Positions 5,734 to 30,003 of a stretch of 64,000 nt of DNA are shown in pieces. This stretch comes from a virus: positions 32,001 to 96,000 of the IMG/VR virus record IMGVR_UViG_3300023174_000050; one strand, written 5' to 3'. The stretch's first letter is position 1. Each line of letters opens with the position of its first letter. The notes below the pieces were generated by a model that was given only the letters and a program-made list of their open reading frames with translations, ran no database searches and had not been told where the DNA came from. The translations under genes and the position numbers were made by a program.

Positions 5734-5815
5734 AAGGTAAAACCTTTTTATTACCTTTAATAACCACACACTCAATAAGGTTTTCCTTGACAGGGTCTCC
5801 AAAAGCAATTATAAT
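5731..5815 (+). promoter_or_regulatory. promoter cassette: hairpin, inverted repeat, sigma70 promoter
   Basis: 23-nt copy of 3242-3264 at 5731-5753; TAACCAC-N9-AAGGTTT 5761-5783; TTGACA 5787-5792; TATAAT 5810-5815. Confidence 0.8.
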
Positions 5816-7389: not shown

Positions 7390-7458
7390 AAAGCGAAAAC
7401 CATGAGAAAGCGTGAGATTATGAAAAGGATTCGTTTTGAGTGGATTCGAAAATTGTGC

Positions 7459-7487
7459 TTGACTTCTAAATCAAAAGGCATTATAAT
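7459..7487 (+). promoter_or_regulatory. sigma70-type early promoter
   Basis: TTGACT-N17-TATAAT. Confidence 0.8.
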
Positions 7488-7513
7488 TAAGATCTAGTAA
7501 CTCGGAGAATACT

Positions 7514-7912
7514 ATGCAGACACAGCAACAACACTTTCAGTATATGTTTTCAGCTATCAACAAAGTATATGACAAGTACTCTGATGATGCAGATGTGAAG
7601 CATTTGTACTATGCATTCAATAAACTTCAGACCAACACAAACGAGGGCAACATTGTGCATCAAATAACTGACAAAGAATCTGAGAAAATTAACAACACTA
7701 AAGTTTATACTATAGACTACAGTGATCGTGAGTATTCTGATGAGTTAGAAGTGTTAGCTGAACTGGCTATTTTTAACGAGACACAGTTTTATGCATCGCG
7801 TGATCTAGGTGGCTTAACTGTTTACTATGCTAAGCCAGAAAATAACGAGCCAGCTAAGCTAGTAGCATTCTATGACTATGAGCAACAACGTGGAACAGTT
7901 TTTGAAGATTGA
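7514..7912 (+). CDS. hypothetical protein
   Basis: GGAG RBS after promoter. Confidence 0.65.
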   Translation: MQTQQQHFQYMFSAINKVYDKYSDDADVKHLYYAFNKLQTNTNEGNIVHQITDKESEKINNTKVYTIDYSDREYSDELEVLAELAIFNETQFYASRDLGGLTVYYAKPENNEPAKLVAFYDYEQQRGTVFED

Positions 7913-8199
7913 TAATGAAAGTAATAATCAATAAATGTTATGGTGGATTTGGTCTTAGTAAAGAAGCTGAGAACAAATACAAGGAACTAGCTGGTATCTC
8001 AGATCCAAACTTTTACGACCGTAGCATTGCAAGAGACGATGCGCATTTGATTGCGCTGGTTGAGCTGATGGGATCAGAGGCCAGCGGTAGGTATGCTGAC
8101 TTAAGGATTGTGGAAATTCCAGATGACATTAAGTGGTACATCGAGGAATATGATGGATTGGAATGGGTGGCAGAAACACATAGGACTTGGGGTCAATAA
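7909..8199 (+). CDS. phage hypothetical protein
   Basis: VIINKCYGGFGLS...VEIP...I.EYDGLEWVAE recalled phage family. Confidence 0.7.
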   Translation: MIMKVIINKCYGGFGLSKEAENKYKELAGISDPNFYDRSIARDDAHLIALVELMGSEASGRYADLRIVEIPDDIKWYIEEYDGLEWVAETHRTWGQ

Positions 8200-8381
8200 T
8201 GAACACCATTGTATTTGTTTTGATTGTGTTAAACAGTAATGGGCATTTTACCAATACAGTGATTCCCACAATGGAATTTAATACCTTTGAAAAATGTGAA
8301 CAGGCTATTCGTGCATTTGAAACAGATGCAAAGGGTAAAAAAGGATATGTGGATATGCGATGTGTAAGGATTGAAAAATGA
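8199..8381 (+). CDS. small hypothetical protein
   Basis: Coupled ORF with two Cys. Confidence 0.5.
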   Translation: MNTIVFVLIVLNSNGHFTNTVIPTMEFNTFEKCEQAIRAFETDAKGKKGYVDMRCVRIEK

Positions 8382-8504
8382 AAAAATATTTGGACCCGGA
8401 TTTTATTATAATGTTTTTATGGTTTATTATACTACAGCCTTTGATATTCTTTTTGTCTATGGGTGTCTTCTTATCAGCAGTGTACCAAAGCATTTGGGGA
8501 TAAT

Positions 8505-8711
8505 ATGAACAATCGAATCAAAGAACTTGAAAAACAATGCTGGAGTCATCGTGTTGACGGAGTTCTGGTAGACGGACATTTGCATTTTGATACGCAAAAG
8601 TTTGCCGAGTTGATTGTAAAGGAATGTGCTCTTACCGCAGGTTTGATGGAGCATGAAGGTCGCAAAGGTATCGGCGCACAAATATTAGATAATTTTGGAG
8701 TTGAAGAATGA
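8505..8711 (+). CDS. small phage protein, paralogue 1
   Basis: MNNRIKEL...KFAELIVKEC...FGVE. Confidence 0.65.
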   Translation: MNNRIKELEKQCWSHRVDGVLVDGHLHFDTQKFAELIVKECALTAGLMEHEGRKGIGAQILDNFGVEE

Positions 8712-8908
8712 ACGAGCGCATTAGATCCCTTGCAAGACAAAGCCATTTAGATGTATATGGACTTGGTCTAGATAAAGTCAAATGGGAAGCTGTCCTAGGA
8801 CAGTTCGCCGAGTCAATTGTCAGGGAATGTGCTGATATAGCAACAATGAATCAATATCAGCCTTTGACTGCTGGTACATATGTTCTTAAACATTTTGGAG
8901 TTGAATAA
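8708..8908 (+). CDS. small phage protein, paralogue 2
   Basis: MNERIRSL...QFAESIVREC...HFGVE. Confidence 0.65.
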   Translation: MNERIRSLARQSHLDVYGLGLDKVKWEAVLGQFAESIVRECADIATMNQYQPLTAGTYVLKHFGVE

Positions 8909-9074
8909 TGTGGTCATTAATTATAGCGTTTATGATAGATACAGTCCCCGTTGAAGCACGGTACATTCAGTTGGCTGAAATGAAGACATATCAAGAGTGT
9001 AAAGATCTATCTAATATACTTAGGAAACATGGGCTCAACGGTGATACCTTTCTATTCTGTGTGGAGAAACAATA

Positions 9075-9266
9075 ATGGCAAATAAAAGAGTAAAAATAGA
9101 ACTATATGCAGAAGCACCTTATATGCAGGGTTATGCATCAGGATTGGCAACGGAACAATTCTTTAATCCATATGCTGATGTAGAAAATGCAGAAGCTGAT
9201 GCTGAGGACTATGAGCGAGGTTACGAGAATGCTAAAGACGTAGAGAAAAATGATACTAAATACTGA
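9075..9266 (+). CDS. small acidic hypothetical protein
   Basis: GGAG RBS. Confidence 0.55.
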   Translation: MANKRVKIELYAEAPYMQGYASGLATEQFFNPYADVENAEADAEDYERGYENAKDVEKNDTKY

Positions 9267-9930
9267 CAAGTATGTAGAACAAAGAATAGTTGAGTCGAGA
9301 AAGCAGGCACAGTACAGCCAACCTCCAGCAAACAGCTGGGATAACATCACAGATTACATTACATATACGCCGAATTGGCTGCATGCCGACGGTAGAATAT
9401 ACGCATCTGCCCCAGGTGAAGAGTATAGAGTAGCAGAAGTCAGCCCATATAATCCGAAGTTTGAGACGCAAATCGAAGCGGGAGTCTGGCCTATAGTAAA
9501 TGCATTGGTAAATAAGGGATATCTAACTTGTGCAAGTTGCGAAGGACACGGCAGAGATTTGGATTGTTTCGTAAGTTTAGTCACACCAACACTCGAATCA
9601 GCAATAGAACTAGTCAATCTACTAAAAATCGACCCTTGGAAAATAACAGTAAAGACTGACAGATCAATCTGGGATTATACATCTGCTCTGAAAACAACTA
9701 AAAATACATTAGGTAGAGACGAATTAAAATTAAAAGTGTTTCCATATTATAATCGAATCTTTCGCCGAAACTACGATGAATACTTCTATATAGATATGCA
9801 TTTGGCCAAGTATAGCGGATATGGTTTTATATGGAATTGGTTTACAAAGACACCGAGCAAGAAATATAAAACGGCAATGGAACAGATGACGGATCATATA
9901 ACGAACAAACTACCGTATTCAATATATTAG
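9250..9930 (+). CDS. hypothetical protein with T-x-A-S-C-E-G-H motif
   Basis: 226 aa; GYLTCASCEGH. Confidence 0.65.
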   Translation: MILNTDKYVEQRIVESRKQAQYSQPPANSWDNITDYITYTPNWLHADGRIYASAPGEEYRVAEVSPYNPKFETQIEAGVWPIVNALVNKGYLTCASCEGHGRDLDCFVSLVTPTLESAIELVNLLKIDPWKITVKTDRSIWDYTSALKTTKNTLGRDELKLKVFPYYNRIFRRNYDEYFYIDMHLAKYSGYGFIWNWFTKTPSKKYKTAMEQMTDHITNKLPYSIY

Positions 9931-9953
9931 TTTGTTGCATAATAAATAACTAT

Positions 9954-10814
9954 ATGCAAAAGACATATAGATCGATATTTATAAGCGATGTTCATCTGGG
10001 CACCAAAGATTGCCAGGCTGATAAACTAAATAATTTTCTAAAGCATAATACATGCGACACACTGTATCTGGTGGGCGATATAATAGATGCCTGGAAAATA
10101 CAGCAAAACCGATGGCGTTGGAAACAATCACACACCAACGTAGTACGTAGAATACTGGGACATGCCAAGCGCGGCACTAAAGTAATATTCATTGCAGGAA
10201 ATCACGATGAATTCTTAAGACCAATGATACCGTATGGTTTCAGTTTTGGTCTAATAGAAATACACAATCAAATAGAACATATAGGCGCAGATGGATTACA
10301 CTATCTGGTTGTACATGGAGACATGTTTGATGGCATAACACGACTAGCACCATGGCTATCATTTTTAGGAGATAAAGCCTATGATTTCATTCTTAGTCTC
10401 AATAGCAAACTTGCTTGGATTCGTCACCGTATGGGTTTTGGGTACTTTAGCCTTAGCCGTTTTCTTAAGCACCGAGTCAAAAAAGCAGTAGATTTCATCT
10501 TCAAGTTCGAAGAGAATCTGGCTCAGTATTGTAAAAAGCGTGGCTTTGATGGTGTGATTTGCGGTCACATACATCATGCTGAGATTAAGGAAATCGACGG
10601 TGTGGCATATATGAACGACGGAGACTGGGTAGAGAGTTGTACAGCATTAGTTGAACACCACGATGGTCGTTGGGAAATAGTAACTTGGACAAGGGAGAAT
10701 GACAATGAAGGTAAACAGATTAATCAGGAAAATGTACAAAGCAATACTAAGGGGCGACAAAAACAAAGAACGACGCCTTTGGTTCAAGGCAATGAGAAAG
10801 TCATTAAAGCATAA
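9954..10814 (+). CDS. plcP: PlcP-like phospholipase C (LpxH-superfamily metallophosphoesterase)
   Basis: YRSIFISDVHLGT, LYLVGDIID, GNHDE, HGD, VKKAV.FI..FE, GVICGHIH, YMNDGDWVESCTALVE fit the PlcP/SMc00171 pattern as I recall it; next to a GT4 gene. Confidence 0.75.
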   Translation: MQKTYRSIFISDVHLGTKDCQADKLNNFLKHNTCDTLYLVGDIIDAWKIQQNRWRWKQSHTNVVRRILGHAKRGTKVIFIAGNHDEFLRPMIPYGFSFGLIEIHNQIEHIGADGLHYLVVHGDMFDGITRLAPWLSFLGDKAYDFILSLNSKLAWIRHRMGFGYFSLSRFLKHRVKKAVDFIFKFEENLAQYCKKRGFDGVICGHIHHAEIKEIDGVAYMNDGDWVESCTALVEHHDGRWEIVTWTRENDNEGKQINQENVQSNTKGRQKQRTTPLVQGNEKVIKA

Positions 10815-10832
10815 GCATACTGAAGTTATACG

Positions 10833-11828
10833 ATGAAAACGATTTTAATTATAACCGATAATCTACCGGATCAAATAAATGGCGTTGTCACGACTTACAA
10901 AAACATTGAGATTTGCGCGTCTCGTGACGGTTATAACGTTGTGGTGCTTCATCCCGGGTGGTTCCGCTACTTTAATTGCCCTGGCTACAACGAAGTCAAG
11001 ATTGCCTATCCCCGGCAAATGGGCAAGAAGATTGCGGAGATACGTCCGGATTATATCCACATCGCCACAGAAGGTCCTCTTGGTTTGTGGGCTAGAAAGT
11101 ATCTTTCATTATGTAATTATCGCTACAATACCGCTTATCATACTAAGTTTCCAGAAGGACTTAATAAACTATTTGGAATACCTGAAGCATTTACTTGGCC
11201 TTTAGTACGTTGGTTTCATAAGCATTCCGGCAAGGTCCTGACGACCACAAACACAATGGTAAATGAACTAAGGAACCATGGCTTTGACGGCGAAGTAATA
11301 CCATGGACCCGAGGAGTAGATAGAGATATATTTAACCCGACGCACAGAGTAAACACTATTAGCAAGTATATACTATGCGTATCACGCGTCAGTAAAGAAA
11401 AGAACCTTGAAGACTTTCTAAGTCTTGACTACCCGGGATATCTCAAAGTAATGGTAGGCGACGGCCCCATGCTGGATGCATATAAGAAAAAGTATTCAGA
11501 CGTACACTTTACAGGCTACAAAACGGGTAAAGATCTGGCACAGTATTACGCAAACGCAGAAGTATTTGTATTTCCAAGTAAATGGGAGACTTTTGGAATT
11601 GTAATGATCGAAGCCATGGCCTGCGGAACTCCTGTAGCAGCATATAACGTAACGGGCCCAAAAGACGTAATAGATCAAGGAATAACAGGCTATATGGATA
11701 CTTCATTAAGTACAGCAATAGATAAGTGTTTAAAGTTGGATAGAAACAACGTACATAAAGCAAGCTATAGATGGTCATGGGAAAACGCGTGGCGAATATT
11801 TAAAGATAATCTTATAAGTAAAGTATAA
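10833..11828 (+). CDS. GT4 glycosyltransferase, Agt-like glycolipid synthase
   Basis: ITD...QINGVVTT, HIATEGPLG, YHTKFPE, VSRVSKEKN, FPSKWETFGIVMIEAMACGTPV. Confidence 0.8.
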   Translation: MKTILIITDNLPDQINGVVTTYKNIEICASRDGYNVVVLHPGWFRYFNCPGYNEVKIAYPRQMGKKIAEIRPDYIHIATEGPLGLWARKYLSLCNYRYNTAYHTKFPEGLNKLFGIPEAFTWPLVRWFHKHSGKVLTTTNTMVNELRNHGFDGEVIPWTRGVDRDIFNPTHRVNTISKYILCVSRVSKEKNLEDFLSLDYPGYLKVMVGDGPMLDAYKKKYSDVHFTGYKTGKDLAQYYANAEVFVFPSKWETFGIVMIEAMACGTPVAAYNVTGPKDVIDQGITGYMDTSLSTAIDKCLKLDRNNVHKASYRWSWENAWRIFKDNLISKV

Positions 11829-11851
11829 GGCCTTATTATAGGCCTTTTTTT
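11827..11851 (+). terminator. rho-independent terminator
   Basis: AAGGCCT-tattat-AGGCCTT plus T-run. Confidence 0.8.
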
Positions 11852-12211: not shown

Positions 12212-12266
12212 ACCCTACTCAGTTAAAGGGTCTTTGCTTGACGGGGTATCCAAATTGTGCTATAAT
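12212..12266 (+). promoter_or_regulatory. early promoter with upstream inverted repeat
   Basis: ACCCT-N10-AGGGT 12212-12231; TTGACG 12238-12243; TATAAT 12261-12266. Confidence 0.8.
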
Positions 12267-12272
12267 AGAGGC

Positions 12273-12584
12273 ATGAACAGAAACAAGGAGCAGAACATGA
12301 GAACCCCATTTTTTATTGTAGCAATACGATGCGAGTATACCGGCAACCCTGTAGCAGCTACTATGCAAGTGTTCTCAGACCGCGAGGATGCATATGAAGC
12401 GGTTCGTGCGTACGAGCGCGCAGACCCAGGGCAAGGTGCGCAGGTCTGGGTCGAGCAACCCGTCGGTGGCTTTAAAGCAGTAGCGATGGTCGAGAACGAC
12501 GAAGTTGTGTATTTTAACGAAGATGACGATGACGGTCAGCCCGACGAAGCTCAAGAATGGCACAGCTATGACCCTGATTGCTAA
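12273..12584 (+). CDS. acidic hypothetical protein
   Basis: Leaderless ATG 12273 or AAGGAG-led ATG 12297; track start 12195 lies upstream of the promoter. Confidence 0.65.
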   Translation: MNRNKEQNMRTPFFIVAIRCEYTGNPVAATMQVFSDREDAYEAVRAYERADPGQGAQVWVEQPVGGFKAVAMVENDEVVYFNEDDDDGQPDEAQEWHSYDPDC

Positions 12585-12624
12585 AGGGTCATAGCTTGAC
12601 AGTTTGGTCAGAATGTGCTATAAT
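12564..12624 (+). promoter_or_regulatory. early promoter with perfect 12-bp inverted repeat
   Basis: AGCTATGACCCT-N9-AGGGTCATAGCT; TTGACA 12596-12601; TATAAT 12619-12624. Confidence 0.85.
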
Positions 12625-12657
12625 TGAGACATAATTTAAAGAGAAAAGGAAATTAAA

Positions 12658-12810
12658 ATGCAAGATTCACAAAAGCAACAATTAGACAGCTTATTAATTA
12701 GCGTGCAAAATGCTTTAGACGAACTCGGTTTAGACGAAAATGATGCTGTGCAAAATGCATTTAATGCTTTAGCATGTGCTATTGAAAATAATAGTAACCC
12801 TACAGACTGA
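12658..12810 (+). CDS. small hypothetical protein (50 aa, not in ORF track)
   Basis: AAGGA RBS; MQDSQKQQLDSLL... Confidence 0.6.
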   Translation: MQDSQKQQLDSLLISVQNALDELGLDENDAVQNAFNALACAIENNSNPTD

Positions 12811-12858
12811 AGGGTTATTTGAAAAAGATTTGACAAGTTAGCCAAAAGCACATATAAT
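12795..12858 (+). promoter_or_regulatory. early promoter with upstream inverted repeat
   Basis: TAACCCT-N9-AGGGTTA 12795-12817; TTGACA 12830-12835; TATAAT 12853-12858. Confidence 0.85.
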
Positions 12859-12864
12859 TACGGC

Positions 12865-13791
12865 ATGAACAGAAACAAGGAACAGACAATGAATATAGTG
12901 ATCAAACACAACCCCGGTAAGAATCGTTACGAGGGTTTTGTCGACGGCAAAATGGTTTCGCGTTCACGTCACGAATCATATGTAAAAGACCAGTTAGCTA
13001 AGCTGGGTTTTAGCGTAGGCGAGACACAGAACAATGTTACTGAGAAAGCATCAGAATTTGGTATCAACGAGCGCTTTAGCTTCGTAGAGCAGATGGTCGG
13101 CATGGTCGCTAAAAAGACAATTGCATCAGCAATTATCACAGGTCAGGGCGGCCTGGGTAAGACGCACACGGTGTTGAAAGCTCTTAAGACCAACGGCATG
13201 GCAGACACCACAGATCTCGCTAAGTTCGAGATTGGTGCTCGCATTAATACACCTAAGTCATATCGGGTGATCAAAGGCTTCTCTACAGCAAAGGGCCTGT
13301 ATCGTACGCTGTTCGAAGGCAACGGCCAGGTGCTGGTGTTCGATGACTGTGACAGTGTGTTGACAGACCCCGTAGCATTGAATTTGCTTAAAGGTGCTCT
13401 TGACTCATACGGCGAGCGCTGGATCTCCTGGAACGCAGATATGAAGGACGAGGATCTGCCTAGGTCATTCAAGTTCACAGGTACGATCATTTTCATCTCG
13501 AACAAAGACCTCGAGCGTTTAGACCAAGCAGTTCGTTCGCGAGCAATGTGCGTTGACCTAAGCATGACACAAGGTCAAAAGATCGAGCGCATGGAAGTAC
13601 TTGTAGCAGACCCCGAGTTTCTCGAGGATTACAGCACAGCCTACAAAGCAGACGCAATCAACTTTTTGCGTGACAACATGAACAGCATCAAGAATTTGAG
13701 TTTGCGTACTCTGATAGCAGCGACAAAGATTCGTGCAGAGGGTGGCAATTGGAAGAACTTGGCTAAGTATGTTATTACTCAAGGTGCGTAA
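12865..13791 (+). CDS. P-loop NTPase (AAA-like)
   Basis: Walker A GQGGLGKT, Walker B LVFDDCD, IIFISN, SR motif. Confidence 0.8.
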   Translation: MNRNKEQTMNIVIKHNPGKNRYEGFVDGKMVSRSRHESYVKDQLAKLGFSVGETQNNVTEKASEFGINERFSFVEQMVGMVAKKTIASAIITGQGGLGKTHTVLKALKTNGMADTTDLAKFEIGARINTPKSYRVIKGFSTAKGLYRTLFEGNGQVLVFDDCDSVLTDPVALNLLKGALDSYGERWISWNADMKDEDLPRSFKFTGTIIFISNKDLERLDQAVRSRAMCVDLSMTQGQKIERMEVLVADPEFLEDYSTAYKADAINFLRDNMNSIKNLSLRTLIAATKIRAEGGNWKNLAKYVITQGA

Positions 13792-21757: not shown

Positions 21758-22138
21758 ATGAGTATGCATCTTGAGGGTCCTTGGTTATCATCTTTGGGCA
21801 AAAAACGAAAAAAACAAAAGTTTCGTAATGCTGAAGAAGCAAAACGTCATCGAGAATTAACCGCCCAATGGGAAAAAATGGTTAATGACTACGGCACCAA
21901 TAAAACACAAAAAACAAAACAAGAATCTTTACAGTATTCGTTATCCGTCCCTGCAGGTAGGATTACTAATACACATATTAAAAGTTTAGACACGGGTCAT
22001 ACTGGAGCAGTGGCGAGTAAAGCCATTCCTCAATATACAGGAACAAAGATGTTAGGAATTGGCACTATGCACAAATCTAATGCGGTTCCGATATTTACAG
22101 ATGAAGAAGCAAAATCTATTTCAAGCATGAGGCGTTAA
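21758..22138 (+). CDS. phage hypothetical protein
   Basis: YTGT..LGIGTMHKSNAVPIF. Confidence 0.7.
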   Translation: MSMHLEGPWLSSLGKKRKKQKFRNAEEAKRHRELTAQWEKMVNDYGTNKTQKTKQESLQYSLSVPAGRITNTHIKSLDTGHTGAVASKAIPQYTGTKMLGIGTMHKSNAVPIFTDEEAKSISSMRR

Positions 22139-22908
22139 TGAAAGTAGTTATAGTTACAGGCGGGTTCGATCCTTTACATAAAGGACATATCGAGTATTTT
22201 AAAGCAGCCAAACAATTAGGTGATAGACTAGTTATAGGTGTTAATTCTGACGAATGGTTGACTAGAAAAAAAGGCAAACCATTTATGCAATTGGAAGATA
22301 GATTGTCCATATTAGAACAATCTAGTTTAGTTGATAAAGTTATTACTTTTGATGATAGCGATGGATCTGCTAAAGATGCGATACGTGTATCAATGTTACA
22401 TTATCCTATGCCTAATACTAAATTTATTTTCGCAAATGGCGGAGACAGAACACAAGAAAATATTCCAGAAATGGATATAGTGGAACCTAATTTAGAATTT
22501 GTATTTGGTGTCGGTGGCGAAAATAAAATGAATTCTAGTTCTTGGATTCTTCAAGAATGGAAGTCACCTAAAACCGAAAGACAGTGGGGTTACTATAGAG
22601 TTTTGCATGAACAAGGTAAAGAAGTTAAAGTAAAAGAATTAACAGTAGAACCAGGAAAATGTTTAAGTATGCAAAGGCATCAAGATCGAGCAGAACATTG
22701 GTTTGTATCTGAAGGAACCGCAACCGTCTATACTATAGACTCTAGCACAGATATTGATCTACTTGGAGTATATCAAAAATTTGATAGTCTCCATATTAGT
22801 AAAACAGAATGGCATCAGCTTTGCAATGAAACTGACAAGCCATTAAAAATTGTAGAAATACAATATGGTGAAAATTGTGTTGAGGAAGATATTGAAAGGA
22901 AAATTTAA
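22138..22908 (+). CDS. bifunctional cytidylyltransferase-like / mannose-6-P isomerase (cupin) protein
   Basis: GGFDPLHKGH (HxGH), FANGGDR, then RQWGYY...LSMQRH..RAEHW...IVEIQYG..EEDIER. Confidence 0.85.
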   Translation: MKVVIVTGGFDPLHKGHIEYFKAAKQLGDRLVIGVNSDEWLTRKKGKPFMQLEDRLSILEQSSLVDKVITFDDSDGSAKDAIRVSMLHYPMPNTKFIFANGGDRTQENIPEMDIVEPNLEFVFGVGGENKMNSSSWILQEWKSPKTERQWGYYRVLHEQGKEVKVKELTVEPGKCLSMQRHQDRAEHWFVSEGTATVYTIDSSTDIDLLGVYQKFDSLHISKTEWHQLCNETDKPLKIVEIQYGENCVEEDIERKI

Positions 22909-25612: not shown

Positions 25613-26011
25613 ATGACAACAGACTCACACCGTGTACCAGTAGAACAAGGTTTTACAGATGATCGAGGTACAATTCTCCCCCTAACACACGGCGACGCTA
25701 ATGTCCAAATGATTTGGTCCAAGGCCGGTGCCCTTCGTGCTAACCATTATCATAAGACAGATACTCATACTTGTTATTTAGTAACAGGTGAAATGATGTT
25801 CTACTGGCGAAATCATGGTGAAGATACCATTCATCGCGAACATTTTACACAGGGCGATATGTTTAAAACTGGTCCATTGATCGATCATGAAATGGTGTTT
25901 GAAACTGATTCTACTATGGTCGTTATCTCAGAACACAAACGTGATGCTGATACTTATGATCAAGATATTGTAAAGATTGCTCCTCTTCATGAACAATATG
26001 TTGAAGTATGA
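25613..26011 (+). CDS. cupin, NDP-sugar isomerase/epimerase-like
   Basis: FTDDRG, RANHYHKTDTHTCYLVTG, HEM. Confidence 0.7.
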   Translation: MTTDSHRVPVEQGFTDDRGTILPLTHGDANVQMIWSKAGALRANHYHKTDTHTCYLVTGEMMFYWRNHGEDTIHREHFTQGDMFKTGPLIDHEMVFETDSTMVVISEHKRDADTYDQDIVKIAPLHEQYVEV

Positions 26012-27140
26012 TATATGCCGTTGTTGCGGCAGTAAAAATTTAAACCATTGGTTATCGTTACCAAATTCTCCGGTAGCTAATGCGTTATTCTCAACCCCCG
26101 ATTTATATAGACATCCACTAGAATTAAATTCGTGTGATGACTGTGGACATCTTCAGTTAGCAAGTGCACCGGATCCAGACGATGTTTTTGCAGATTACAG
26201 ATATAAATCTGGGGTATCAAATTCTTTTAAAAATCATTTTAACAAATACGCATTTGATATCATTACACAATACGGTAAAGGCATTGACGGTGCGGTATTA
26301 GAAATTGGTAGTAATGATGGATACCTTTTAGAGCAGTTTAAAAAAATGAACTGTACAGTTCTTGGTGTAGAACCATCGAAACATCTAGTACAGGAACATG
26401 CCGACAAAGGCGTTGACGTTATATGTGATTTCTTTACTGTTGATCTTGTAGATAAACATTCTTTAAGAAATAAATTTGATATAGTATGTGCCAATAACGT
26501 ATTAGCACATATACCTGATACATTAGGTGTTGTACAAGCAATATCTTTATCATTACGTACAAATGGCATACTTGTCGCAGAGTGTGGTCATCAAGAAGGT
26601 ATTACGTCAGGTAAATACCTAGACAATGTCTATCACGAACATATAGATTACTATACTCCATATTCTTTCTCAAAATTATTAGAAAGAGCAGGATTAATTG
26701 TTGAGGATGTAACCATTATTGAAAGTCATGGTATTAGTTTTAGAATTGTTGCTCGTAAACGAACAGGAAATAATAAACTTACTCTTGAGAAGTTAGATTG
26801 GGATCTAAAACAAGCAGAAGTTGAAAATTATATCTCCGCGCGCGAAGATAAGATGCGAGCGCTAATAGGTGATAGGCCCTTTGTTGCATATGGTGCAGCT
26901 GCTAAAGCAGTAACATCATTATATACACTAGGATTAGTTAATAATAAACTAATTGGAGTAGTAGATGATAATGATCTTAAACAGGGATACTATTTCCCAG
27001 GTACAGACATATTAATTACTAATCCTGCGGATTTAGATAAAGACGCATTTGTAGTTGTAACTGCTTGGAATGTATTTTTAGATATTAAAGAAAAATTAGT
27101 TAGCAGAGGTCATCGAGGAGAAATTATCTGCATGCAATAG
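25998..27140 (+). CDS. NDP-sugar C-methyltransferase
   Basis: CRCC..C..CGHLQL Zn site, VLEIGSNDG, ANNVLAHI, YHEHIDYY, YGAAAK, DDNDLKQG..PGT. Confidence 0.85.
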   Translation: MLKYDICRCCGSKNLNHWLSLPNSPVANALFSTPDLYRHPLELNSCDDCGHLQLASAPDPDDVFADYRYKSGVSNSFKNHFNKYAFDIITQYGKGIDGAVLEIGSNDGYLLEQFKKMNCTVLGVEPSKHLVQEHADKGVDVICDFFTVDLVDKHSLRNKFDIVCANNVLAHIPDTLGVVQAISLSLRTNGILVAECGHQEGITSGKYLDNVYHEHIDYYTPYSFSKLLERAGLIVEDVTIIESHGISFRIVARKRTGNNKLTLEKLDWDLKQAEVENYISAREDKMRALIGDRPFVAYGAAAKAVTSLYTLGLVNNKLIGVVDDNDLKQGYYFPGTDILITNPADLDKDAFVVVTAWNVFLDIKEKLVSRGHRGEIICMQ

Positions 27141-27871
27141 TTTATGGTACCGGCAAATGGGCGCAATTAATAGGATCTAAATTAAAGGCTTTAAAAGTTG
27201 TTCCTGTTTACGTGGGTAGCAGAGTATCACCTGAAGTAATATCCCGAGACGAAGTAAAAAAAACTTCTTATCGGGATTTGCCTGTTTTCATTGCATCGGC
27301 AACCGAAACACATTTAGATGATCTAAAACATTGCTTGTGTATTAATCCTTCTAAGATATTTGTAGAAAAAGGATTTTGTAATAATCAAGAAAGACAAGAA
27401 GCCAATAATATAATTGGTTCAATACCTTCATTTTTATTATCCCAACATAGATATTCTTCAATTTTTGATTTGTTTATGAGTTCACAAGATGTTAATAAGA
27501 TACATAAGTGTACATATACATGGAAAATTGAAAAAGATAGTGTTTCGGAATATCTTTACCATTTATCATCAATAGATGGATTCCTTAGAAGAAAAAAAAT
27601 CGAAATTTATAGTAATGAATTTGGCACCAATACAATAGATGATGTGTCAAGTTATAGTGTGGTAAAAAGTCCATACAGACTTTTTAAAATAAATATAGAG
27701 TCATCAGTATATGACGCTACTTTTAAAATAGGCATATATAACAGTATGAATATGCGACCAAAAAATAGTAAACAAAAAATTGTTATGACTGCGTATTCGG
27801 AGGATACTGTAGGAAAAATGATTTATAATACTTTAGAAGAAAATAGTAAAATTAAACTTGAGAGGATATAA
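27128..27871 (+). CDS. putative NAD(P)-dependent oxidoreductase (Gfo/Idh/MocA-like), probable CTG start
   Basis: Frame open from 27104; GAGGAG 27115-27120 then CTG 27128; IVYGTGKWA Rossmann-like loop; FVEKG. Confidence 0.55.
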   Translation: MHAIVYGTGKWAQLIGSKLKALKVVPVYVGSRVSPEVISRDEVKKTSYRDLPVFIASATETHLDDLKHCLCINPSKIFVEKGFCNNQERQEANNIIGSIPSFLLSQHRYSSIFDLFMSSQDVNKIHKCTYTWKIEKDSVSEYLYHLSSIDGFLRRKKIEIYSNEFGTNTIDDVSSYSVVKSPYRLFKINIESSVYDATFKIGIYNSMNMRPKNSKQKIVMTAYSEDTVGKMIYNTLEENSKIKLERI

Positions 27872-28869
27872 TGAATATTTTAATTTTAGGCGGCGATGGT
27901 TTTATTGGATATCACCTAAGTGAATCTATTTTAAAAGATGATAGATTTAAAGATAGTACAATCACATCAGTTGATTTGTATAATAATCGTATACATATGC
28001 TACCCGAAGATAAACGATTAGTTTTTCATCAGTTAGATGTGTTAAAAGATAAAAATGAGATTGATACTTTAATAGCAAAGTGTGATGTATTATTACCTTT
28101 TGTTGCTATTGCCACTCCTAAGTTGTATGTGGAACAACCCATGCGAGTATTTGAATTAGATTTTGAAGAAAATCTTCGCGTAATTAAACTTGCGCAAAAA
28201 CTAGGTAAAAGAGTCCTGTTTCCATCTACATCCGAAGTATATGGTAAGGGCCAGGCTCCGTTCGATGAAGAAACAACTGATTTAGTATATGGTCCCATTA
28301 AATATTCCAGATGGATTTATGCTTGTTCTAAACAATTATTAGATCGTGTTATTTTTGCGTTGGATCAACGAGAAGGTATGCGTTTTACTTTGTTTAGACC
28401 ATTTAATTGGGTAGGTCCATATTTGGATTCTTTAGAGGCAACATCTGAAGGTTCTTCTAGATTAATTACTCAGTTAATAGGCGATTCCTTACAACGAGGT
28501 GAACTTACATTAGTAGATGGTGGACATCAAAAACGATGCTTTACAGATGTGCGTGACGGTGTAGCTGCTCTTAAAGAAATTCTTTTGAACGAAGACAAAA
28601 CTCAGGGCAAAATTTATAATATTGGCAATCCGTGGAACAATCTATCAGTGCGCGAAGTATCCGTTTTATTAGTTGACAAATTAAAAGAACGAGGAATGGT
28701 TGAGAATGTAGATATTAAGGTAAAATCCAGCGGAGATTTTTACGGTGCGGGATACCAAGATGTAAGTAATCGAGTACCTAGTATTAATGCTATTGGCAAC
28801 GATTTAAATTGGACTCCTAAATATTCATTTACAGATTCATTAACAAATATTCTTGATTCTATCAAATAA
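27871..28869 (+). CDS. ArnA-decarboxylase-like SDR (UDP-glucuronate decarboxylase)
   Basis: GGDGFIG, VFELDFEENL, FPSTSEVYG, RWIYACSKQLLDRVI, FRPFNW.GP, QKRCFT. Confidence 0.85.
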   Translation: MNILILGGDGFIGYHLSESILKDDRFKDSTITSVDLYNNRIHMLPEDKRLVFHQLDVLKDKNEIDTLIAKCDVLLPFVAIATPKLYVEQPMRVFELDFEENLRVIKLAQKLGKRVLFPSTSEVYGKGQAPFDEETTDLVYGPIKYSRWIYACSKQLLDRVIFALDQREGMRFTLFRPFNWVGPYLDSLEATSEGSSRLITQLIGDSLQRGELTLVDGGHQKRCFTDVRDGVAALKEILLNEDKTQGKIYNIGNPWNNLSVREVSVLLVDKLKERGMVENVDIKVKSSGDFYGAGYQDVSNRVPSINAIGNDLNWTPKYSFTDSLTNILDSIK

Positions 28870-29250: not shown

Positions 29251-30003
29251 ATGGCAAAAACAAGAACTAATGTTCAAACACAATCTAGTCAAACCCCTCA
29301 GTTAACGTTAGCAAATAACAAACTGAAATTATGTCTAGATGACATGAAAACAATAAAGCCATTAACAGAAAATCAGAAAGGATTCTTTGAAGCATACGAT
29401 AAATCTAAAGTAATGTTGTTGCACGGTGTTGCAGGAACAGGAAAAACTTATATTGCACTTTATCACGCATTGGAGGAAGTATTAGATAAACAAAATCAAT
29501 ATCAACGAGTAGTAATAGTAAGATCGGCAGTGCCGAGCAGGGATATAGGACATTTACCGGGGGACGAAAAAGAAAAGACAGAAGTATATACAGAACCATA
29601 TGTAGAAATATGTAAAGACTTATTCGATAGAACTGATGCATTTCAAAGATTGAGCGAGCAAAAAGCAGTTCAATTTATGATCACATCTTTTGTCAGAGGT
29701 ATAACTTTAAGTAATTCTATAATTTTAGTTGACGAATGCCAAAATATGACCGATATGGAATTAAATTCCATAATGACTAGAGTAGGCGTTAGATCTAAAA
29801 TTATATTTTGCGGAGATTTTAGACAAACCGATCTGTATAAGAAAACCGATATGTCTGGACTAAAGAAATTCATGGCTATCGCAGATATGATGCCTAGTTT
29901 TAAAACATTTGAATTTGGAATTGAAGATATAGTTAGATCCGCAATAGTTAAGGAATATATATTAGCAAGGCTAAAATATGAGAACCAATATGAATTGGCA
30001 TAA
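29251..30003 (+). CDS. phoH: PhoH-like ATPase
   Basis: GVAGTGKT, G.LPG, RGITL, DECQN, GDFRQTD, DIVRS. Confidence 0.95.
   Translation: MAKTRTNVQTQSSQTPQLTLANNKLKLCLDDMKTIKPLTENQKGFFEAYDKSKVMLLHGVAGTGKTYIALYHALEEVLDKQNQYQRVVIVRSAVPSRDIGHLPGDEKEKTEVYTEPYVEICKDLFDRTDAFQRLSEQKAVQFMITSFVRGITLSNSIILVDECQNMTDMELNSIMTRVGVRSKIIFCGDFRQTDLYKKTDMSGLKKFMAIADMMPSFKTFEFGIEDIVRSAIVKEYILARLKYENQYELA

Follow-up and report, generated by a model that had tools for sequence, protein, structure and literature searches.

Positions 9941–11851 of a 64,000-nucleotide stretch of viral DNA (the window; bases 32001–96000 of the 190,131-bp IMG/VR virus record IMGVR_UViG_3300023174_000050) hold a two-gene unit, plcP followed by an agt-like gene of glycosyltransferase family 4 (GT4), which is probably a phage-carried version of the bacterial PlcP–Agt membrane lipid remodelling pathway, through which phosphorus in host lipids would be mined for phage DNA. 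The assignment of the two products to their families (P0001 to PlcP and P0002 to the Agt/GTcp clade of GT4) is firmly supported by sequence comparison, and a remodelling function is likely. That this phage itself profits in phosphorus is plausible though less certain, as its copy lacks the Pho wiring.

During infection, PlcP, a cytoplasmic phospholipase C with an LpxH-like fold that depends on Mn or another metal, would split the glycerophospholipids of the host, leaving diacylglycerol and releasing the head group with its phosphate, and the freed lipid phosphorus would pass into nucleotide and phage DNA synthesis. The GT4 would at once move sugar from a uridine diphosphate (UDP)-sugar onto the diacylglycerol, and the phosphorus-free glycolipid so formed would maintain the membrane until lysis and avert a build-up of diacylglycerol. 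Substrates, products, timing of expression and benefit to the phage are what we infer in this scheme. An earlier first-pass annotation, made from the letters of the window alone, had proposed the same conversion of phospholipid to glycolipid for phosphorus mining, and at the sequence level the proposal is supported by both family assignments, by the operon order and by the linkage of sister cassettes to Pho-box-like repeats and pstS.

Phosphorus is often limiting for phage production in lakes and oligotrophic seas, and the known phage answers are uptake genes such as pstS and phoA; if the proposed function is true, recycling of host membrane phospholipids would provide phages with a second, internal source of phosphorus. 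By a rough estimate, a 190-kb genome needs about 3.8e5 phosphorus atoms; with some 1e6 to 2e7 phospholipid molecules in a bacterial cell, membranes could cover the needs of several to tens of genomes.

Both enzymes and their pathway have already been described in bacteria. New are the viral carriage, a phage-specific clade, an interchangeable glycosyltransferase partner, a glutamate variant of the GT4 and islands that combine Pho-box-like repeats with pstS. Full-text literature searches that combined plcP with phage, viral or auxiliary metabolic gene (AMG) terms returned no description of a phage-encoded PlcP, and the genome papers of phages Mosig and S-SRM01 do not mention the gene, in line with the earlier remark that the pair is uncharacterised in phages.

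The metallophosphoesterase gene

The plcP gene (9954–10814, + strand) encodes a 286-residue protein, P0001, which matches the Pfam family Metallophos (PF00149, E 1.7e-11) and which is, as judged from its sequence, a PlcP and not an LpxH (UDP-2,3-diacylglucosamine diphosphatase). P0001 is 58% identical to PlcP of Pseudomonas aeruginosa (PA3219, 271 bits) and 49% identical to that of Sinorhizobium meliloti (247 bits), compared with 25% identity over 120 residues and 33 bits for Escherichia coli LpxH. As the two validated PlcPs share 47% identity with each other, in agreement with the published value of 46% (PMC8528852), P0001 is closer to each of them than they are to one another. The S. meliloti reference is the single PlcP-type gene near an acyl-homoserine lactone synthase/LuxR pair in a 3.7-Mb record labelled ‘plasmid’, and PA3219 and its neighbour PA3218 were taken from the azoR3–cyaB region of the P. 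aeruginosa pHOU1-1 record, also labelled ‘plasmid’, with roles according to PMC8528852.

The LpxH family models give P0001 scores far below their thresholds, 46 bits for NF003743 (44–46 bits across the analysis; cut-off 134) and 34.5 bits for TIGR01854 (cut-off 190). Across 61 sampled Pseudomonadota genomes, NF003743 separates two score groups, the true LpxH proteins at 213–361 bits and a second paralogue at 36–55 bits, and it is to the low group that P0001 belongs; in seven of these genomes a true LpxH occurs alongside the PlcP-like paralogue. In a maximum likelihood tree of 76 rows (16 LpxH and 60 PlcP-type), a branch with 100% support sets all 16 LpxH rows apart from P0001, the remaining phage copies, the two validated PlcPs and 37 PlcP-like proteins of bacteria. 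The phage copies (18 sampled rows) form a single phage-only clade, also with 100% support. The first-pass annotation had named the gene plcP and had pointed to clustering with LpxH as the outcome that would speak against this; the tree places LpxH apart, and the phylogeny agrees with the comparisons to validated proteins.

P0001 shares its clade with the bacterial PlcPs (S. meliloti SMc00171, P. aeruginosa PA3219, Phaeobacter MED193_17359 and Burkholderia cenocepacia BCAL2364; PMC4796936, PMC8528852, PMC13691135), at 49–58% identity, and has the same seven metal-ligand residues (D12, H14, D42, N83, H121, H205 and H207), which are invariant or nearly so among 30 PlcP-type sequences; in both settings the gene lies directly upstream of a lipid glycosyltransferase. 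It differs from them in being encoded by a lytic T4-like phage, in belonging to the phage-only clade, in an extra hydrophilic C-terminal tail and in the lack of a Pho box before the gene. The AlphaFold (AF2) model of P0001 (predicted local distance difference test, pLDDT, 81.7) consists of a phosphoesterase core and a two-helix insert at residues 127–196, followed by the variable tail, in which confidence is low beyond residue 250 or so (pLDDT below 50 at 267–281).

The 25 best structural matches of this model found by Foldseek are all LpxH (E about 1e-10, template modelling score 0.5–0.6, about 20% identity), and LpxH has in common with P0001 a calcineurin-like fold with a helical lipid-binding insert. 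The fold thus fits a lipid-directed paralogue of LpxH. That the nearest solved fold is LpxH is also one of the points in favour of reading the first gene as LpxH itself and the pair as acting in lipid A/lipopolysaccharide (LPS) biosynthesis; the source annotations likewise say ‘UDP-2,3-diacylglucosamine pyrophosphatase LpxH’, and AMG surveys of surface oligotrophic seawater and of Lake Baikal viral transcripts place viral ‘lpxH’ under LPS biosynthesis (PMC10653327, PMC9611531). This reading is contradicted by the alignment scores, the model cut-offs and the tree, as well as by the genomes that hold both paralogues, and it is very improbable: at about 20–25% identity, below the family cut-off and in a separate clade, LpxH is a paralogue of P0001 and a different enzyme. 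The ‘lpxH’ entries of the surveys likely belong to the phage plcP family, and, as the mis-annotation is systematic, counts of viral ‘LPS biosynthesis’ AMGs may in part be counts of lipid-remodelling genes.

The glycosyltransferase gene

The second gene (10833–11828, + strand) encodes P0002, a 331-residue protein that matches Glycos_transf_1 (PF00534, E 7.5e-26) and Glyco_transf_4 (PF13439, E 3.9e-13) and is predicted to be a diacylglycerol glycosyltransferase of the Agt/GTcp clade. It is 39% identical over 330 residues (232 bits) to Agt1/PA3218, which yields monoglucosyl-diacylglycerol when expressed in E. coli (PMC8528852), and 40–45% identical to GT4s encoded next after plcP in Alphaproteobacteria, among them SAR11 (single-cell genomes) and HIMB59. 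The clade is less than 25% identical to other GT4s (PMC8231724); solved GT4 structures reach at most 42 bits against P0002, in the C-terminal domain alone, and a search of a library of 1.8 billion representatives returned 596 clusters at E ≤ 1e-30 as against 82,370 at E ≤ 1e-3. The full-length identities of 39–45% to Agt1 and to plcP-linked GT4s bear out the earlier description of the gene as Agt-like, with a glutamate in the place of the catalytic aspartate.

Characterised members of the clade include Agrobacterium tumefaciens Atu2297, PA3218 and PB7211_960 of Pelagibacter HTCC7211 (GTcp, 334 residues); P0002, like them, is encoded downstream of plcP. In GTcp, key residues and the motifs GRVAxEKN and FPSxTDTFG have been defined, together with a catalytic dyad of His104 and Asp256 (PMC8231724). 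GTcp numbering was transferred to P0002 by alignment to SAR11 single-cell genomes and HIMB59 combined with the published description (PMC8231724). P0002 retains the equivalents of His104, Thr162/Arg163, Arg190, Lys195, Glu264 and Trp320, and it has in common with Agt/GTcp the Gly-rich motifs, HxATEGPxG, HTKFPE, W(T)RGV and the C-terminal Trp. HTKFPE holds the equivalent of the catalytic His104, and the proposed diacylglycerol contacts are kept in WTRGVD (Thr162/Arg163) and in a C-terminal WSW (Trp320). Of the UDP-sugar motifs, SRVSKEKN is close to GRVAxEKN, and FPSKWETFG stands in place of FPSxTDTFG, so that the Asp256 equivalent is Glu and the dyad is incomplete.

Two unusual architectures occur among the Agt-clade proteins recovered by the search of representative clusters with P0002. 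Of P0299 (800 residues) and P0296 (705 residues), one is fused to a C-terminal membrane family 2 glycosyltransferase (GT2) with a QRxRW-type motif, and the other seems, as judged by eye, to carry an intein-like insert of about 300 residues inside the EAxxCGTPV motif.

Gene order in bacteria

A full-length homologue of P0002 is present in 157 of 401 sampled alphaproteobacterial genomes, a tally that includes one unpublished genome (G244), and plcP lies directly upstream of the GT4 in all 14 of the best alphaproteobacterial matches inspected. The neighbour expected of a plcP is a gene for an enzyme that uses up diacylglycerol (agt, pgt or btaAB). The order is the same in P. aeruginosa (PA3219/PA3218), and in HIMB59 the same gene pair is found in phosphate-related genomic islands, where it is annotated as LpxH (PMC10734472). 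The plcP-then-GT4 order of the phage pair therefore corresponds to the same operon as in bacteria. GT4 matches in high-GC genomes lie within long open frames; in the one such genome for which both matches were listed (G378), the plcP match falls in an open frame that is separate from, and shorter than, the long open frame of the GT4. The SAR11 single-cell genome AG-891-K05 contains two divergent plcP–agt operons in opposite orientation, about 5 kb apart (1190–2993 and 7450–9248 of the locus L134).

The cassette across phages

The pair, for which the first-pass annotation had suggested looking in viral metagenomes, recurs there: plcP is present in at least 407 IMG/VR contigs, and a glycosyltransferase gene follows directly 3' of it in 78 of the best 80 of these contigs, the remaining two ending at that point. 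The best 80, from which the viral cassette statistics are drawn, are 78–90% identical to P0001. A wider search scored 8000 candidate relatives of P0001, every one of them significant; the top 120 clusters were 79–91% identical, some comprised more than 1,500 member sequences, and protein clusters at 80–90% identity number in the thousands. Among about 185,000 species genomes, on the other hand, identity to P0001 does not exceed 61% save in three contigs of metagenome-assembled genomes (MAGs) with a phage-type cassette. These three (L011, L012 and L013, from MAGs named Haliscomenobacter, Polynucleobacter and Gammaproteobacteria) have a plcP–GT2 cassette at 79–89% identity and are probably viral DNA mis-binned into bacterial MAGs.

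The viral loci that bear plcP range from fragments to contigs of 171–367 kb, with unrelated neighbouring genes, and no conserved flanks were found between the window and the other cassettes except for one P0004 homologue in L067. Unrelated neighbours on differing contigs indicate that the cassette moves among phage lineages. Within the 77 loci scored for partner type, the gap between plcP and the glycosyltransferase gene stays between −55 and +121 nt despite the differing flanking genes. An apparent 627-residue PlcP–GT4 fusion in L053 was rejected, as stop codons separate the genes.

The partner is a P0002-type GT4 in 20 of the 77 loci (69–79% identity) and an unrelated GT2 of 239 residues in the other 57 (for example L005:8907–9626). 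The GT2 matches Glycos_transf_2 (PF00535) and scores above the Pfam cut-off with PF13506/GT21; NCBIfam returns sub-threshold matches only, and a search of 121 alphaproteobacterial genomes gave no bacterial homologue at E ≤ 1e-12. The PlcP tree requires at least 10 changes of partner type, six of them forced by well-supported branches; repeated replacement at the same place is what would be expected if the job of the partner is to consume the product of PlcP. The ratio of nonsynonymous to synonymous substitution rates (dN/dS) is 0.06–0.10 for plcP and 0.08–0.21 for the GT4; dS is 1 or more, and synonymous sites are saturated. These values place both genes under purifying selection, and the low ratios at saturated dS argue that the cassette is old in phages and functional.

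Pho-box-like repeats and pstS

Upstream of phage plcP copies, on the coding strand, there is a direct repeat with an 11-bp period, TGT[AC]A[CT]-N5-TGT[AC]A[CT] (TGTMAY-N5-TGTMAY), of which TGTCACAGAATTGTCAT and TGTAACAAAACTGTAAC are examples. Of 56 distinct regions upstream of phage plcP, 28 have the repeat, which begins 35–53 nt 5' of the ATG (loci L055, L059, L062, L071, L079, L092 and L100 among them), against a background of 11 matches in the 832 kb that make up the rest of the same loci. Most of these 11 in turn precede neighbouring genes, either the one that directly follows the cassette or a gene for a 335-residue PstS-type phosphate-binding protein (PF12849, 132 bits). The repeat is found 5' of pstS in L063, L079, L083, L085 and L094, and pstS adjoins the cassette in six loci. 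A third conserved gene is also marked by the repeat; its product of about 218 residues begins MRLEDLAARLV, and with plcP and pstS it makes up a small viral Pho island.

TGTMAY-N5-TGTMAY has the form of a Pho box and is a candidate for one. The Pho box before PA3219, CTGTCAC-AGTC-GTTTCAC, lies at a distance similar to that of the phage repeats (PMC8528852, PMC4796936), as does the box CTGTCAT-TCTA-GTGTCAC before the probable plcP of a low-GC alphaproteobacterium. In the phage loci a TAAATA box follows about 11 nt after the repeat and ends 4–8 nt 5' of the ATG, a geometry suggestive of a PhoB-dependent promoter whose mRNA would have little or no leader.

The cultured pelagiphage Mosig encodes a 50%-identical plcP without a glycosyltransferase gene, back to back with pstS (L001:4894–6729). 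The intergenic region between the two contains TTAACA repeats with an 11-bp period, and ATAAATA occurs 5 nt 5' of the ATG.

Cyanophage pstS responds to the host PhoBR. Like the Pho-regulated pstS and phoA of cyanophages, the cassettes bring host-derived phosphorus-stress genes into T4-like aquatic phages, and the sister cassettes have Pho-box-like repeats; the difference is that pstS and phoA import or release external phosphate, whereas the PlcP–glycosyltransferase module would recycle membrane phosphorus and needs a second enzyme for repair. The balance tips modestly towards a general form of this proposal, in which plcP–glycosyltransferase cassettes would be a widespread, phage-specific module for membrane phosphorus mining, often PhoB-controlled and pstS-linked, with an interchangeable partner (GT4 or GT2), that, where waters are poor in phosphorus, turns the phosphorus of host phospholipids into phage DNA and has been catalogued as lpxH/LPS biosynthesis. 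As a set of natural variants, the cassettes lend themselves to work on the specificity of glycolipid synthases, and their repeat is a candidate Pho box for freshwater hosts that have not been cultured.

Phosphorus mining and alternative functions

Several observations weigh against phosphorus mining by the pair in the window. The product of PlcP is phosphorylated head groups rather than free phosphate, and a phosphatase partner was not identified. No TGTMAY-N5-TGTMAY repeat is present 5' of this plcP or anywhere in the 190-kb genome, and pstS was not found in this phage; the closest relatives of the window plcP (L052, L053 and L066) likewise have no repeat. The gene phoH, which the first-pass annotation had seen as fitting a theme of phosphorus limitation, is indeed in the window (29251–30003; PF02562, 168 bits); nearly all T4-like aquatic phages, however, are known to carry phoH, which makes it an unreliable marker of phosphorus. 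The theme is better supported by the Pho-box-like repeats and pstS of sister cassettes. Finally, every phage GT4 examined reads FPS[KR]WETFG, with Glu for Asp256 and Trp for the preceding Thr, and the D256E substitution costs GTcp more than 90% of its activity (PMC8231724).

A copy of plcP that has no Pho box, in a phage that has no pstS, is not wired to phosphorus status, and the same chemistry could instead have its payoff in an altered envelope, either by keeping out superinfecting phages or grazers through a change in the charge of the membrane or in the receptors displayed, or by stabilising the membrane until lysis. Lipid remodelling alters predation and phage attachment, according to PMC9457565, PMC9938194 and PMC9804370, and the repeated swaps of partner could reflect selection on the displayed head-group sugar. 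The sister cassettes that lie behind Pho-box-like repeats and beside pstS point to phosphorus instead, and glycolipids made at the inner membrane are not obviously exposed at the surface. An envelope payoff is considered unlikely, though it retains more weight than the other alternatives to phosphorus mining.

The consistent WETFG motif of the phage copies, set beside the crippled D256E mutant of GTcp, raises the further question of whether the phage GT4 is a diacylglycerol glycosyltransferase at all. It might use another donor or acceptor, with no simple relay from PlcP to Agt, and the window does contain genes that could make an unusual donor for a glycosyltransferase: at 22138–22908 and 25977–28869 there are a cytidylyltransferase-like domain together with a mannose-6-phosphate isomerase C-terminal/cupin domain, a nucleoside diphosphate (NDP)-sugar C-methyltransferase and an NAD-dependent epimerase/dehydratase, the genes at 25977–28869 being the ones that would perhaps supply an unusual NDP-sugar. 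Against this, the putative diacylglycerol-binding residues are kept (the equivalents of His104, Arg163 and Trp320), adjacency to plcP is as strict as in bacteria, dN/dS is about 0.1, and the Glu and Trp variants also occur sporadically inside the bacterial clade. Among 150 representative clusters of the clade, about five have Glu at the Asp256 position and about five have Trp at the preceding position, so Glu here is, on this alignment, a rare natural state; in other GT4 families Glu is the normal residue at the position of the catalytic Asp. A different donor or acceptor is accordingly rated as improbable, and diacylglycerol remains the predicted acceptor in the PlcP–Agt pathway.

Locus layout and transcription signals

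The first-pass annotation had described a metallophosphoesterase gene and a GT4 gene side by side, with a late-promoter-like sequence upstream and a terminator downstream, and each of these is found in place. The two Pfam-matched open reading frames (ORFs) are on the + strand, 18 nt apart, and the preceding ORF ends 23 nt 5' of the plcP ATG. An intrinsic terminator at 11827–11851 (+ strand) closes the unit; its stem of 7 bp (4 G-C pairs) and loop of 6 nt occupy 11827–11846, and the T run extends to 11851.

The box AATAAATA is present at 9941–9948 (+ strand), its last A 6 nt before the A of the plcP ATG, and the role in late transcription remains putative: the box may represent the core of a T4-type late promoter or a −10 element, and a transcript starting from it would be leaderless or almost so. 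The core ATAAATA is rarer in the window than expected (22 sites, 16 of them on the + strand, where 54 ± 7 would be expected), which fits avoidance of a functional late-promoter core elsewhere, and most of the related phage loci, like Mosig, have a TAAATA-type box 4–8 nt 5' of the plcP ATG. For these two reasons the AATAAATA box is unlikely to be there by chance. Several of the ATAAATA sites in the window directly precede structural genes (40317, 51228 and 58898).

The nearest perfect σ70-type promoter upstream of the pair (TTGACA-17-TATAAT) is at 5787–5815, and another promoter of this type, with 11 of 12 positions matched, is at 7459–7487, both on the + strand. No strong terminator was found between these promoters and 9954, and from either of them early transcription could read through into the pair. 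Because a Pho box is lacking and the nearest strong upstream promoters are of the σ70 type, expression of plcP and the GT4 gene in this phage probably follows the phage programme, by early read-through and/or a late-type promoter, and not the phosphorus status of the host.

Source phage and neighbouring genes

The record has a CheckV completeness of 100% and belongs to a T4-like myovirus, with gp5-type and gp6-type baseplate genes, an ATP-dependent DNA ligase and T4 RNase H. Its gp6 is 33–41% identical to those of Methylophilales phage Melnitz, pelagiphages HTVC008M and Mosig, cyanomyoviruses, Caulobacter phage Cr30 and Sinorhizobium phages phiM7 and M12; with identities to named phages as low as these, the sequence represents a new lineage.

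The gene directly upstream of plcP (9250–9930, 226 residues) has no match in Pfam, NCBIfam or PHROG. Beyond the terminator, perfect σ70 promoters (TTGACA-17-TATAAT) start at 12238, 12596 and 12830 and serve genes downstream of it; the promoter-leader cassettes there (12238–12891) seem to be duplicated, the ORFs at 12273 and 12865 both beginning MNRNKEQxM. A second, unrelated metallophosphoesterase of 287 residues (phrog_1649, E 2.8e-55) is encoded at 295–1158, behind a perfect σ70 promoter at 260–288.

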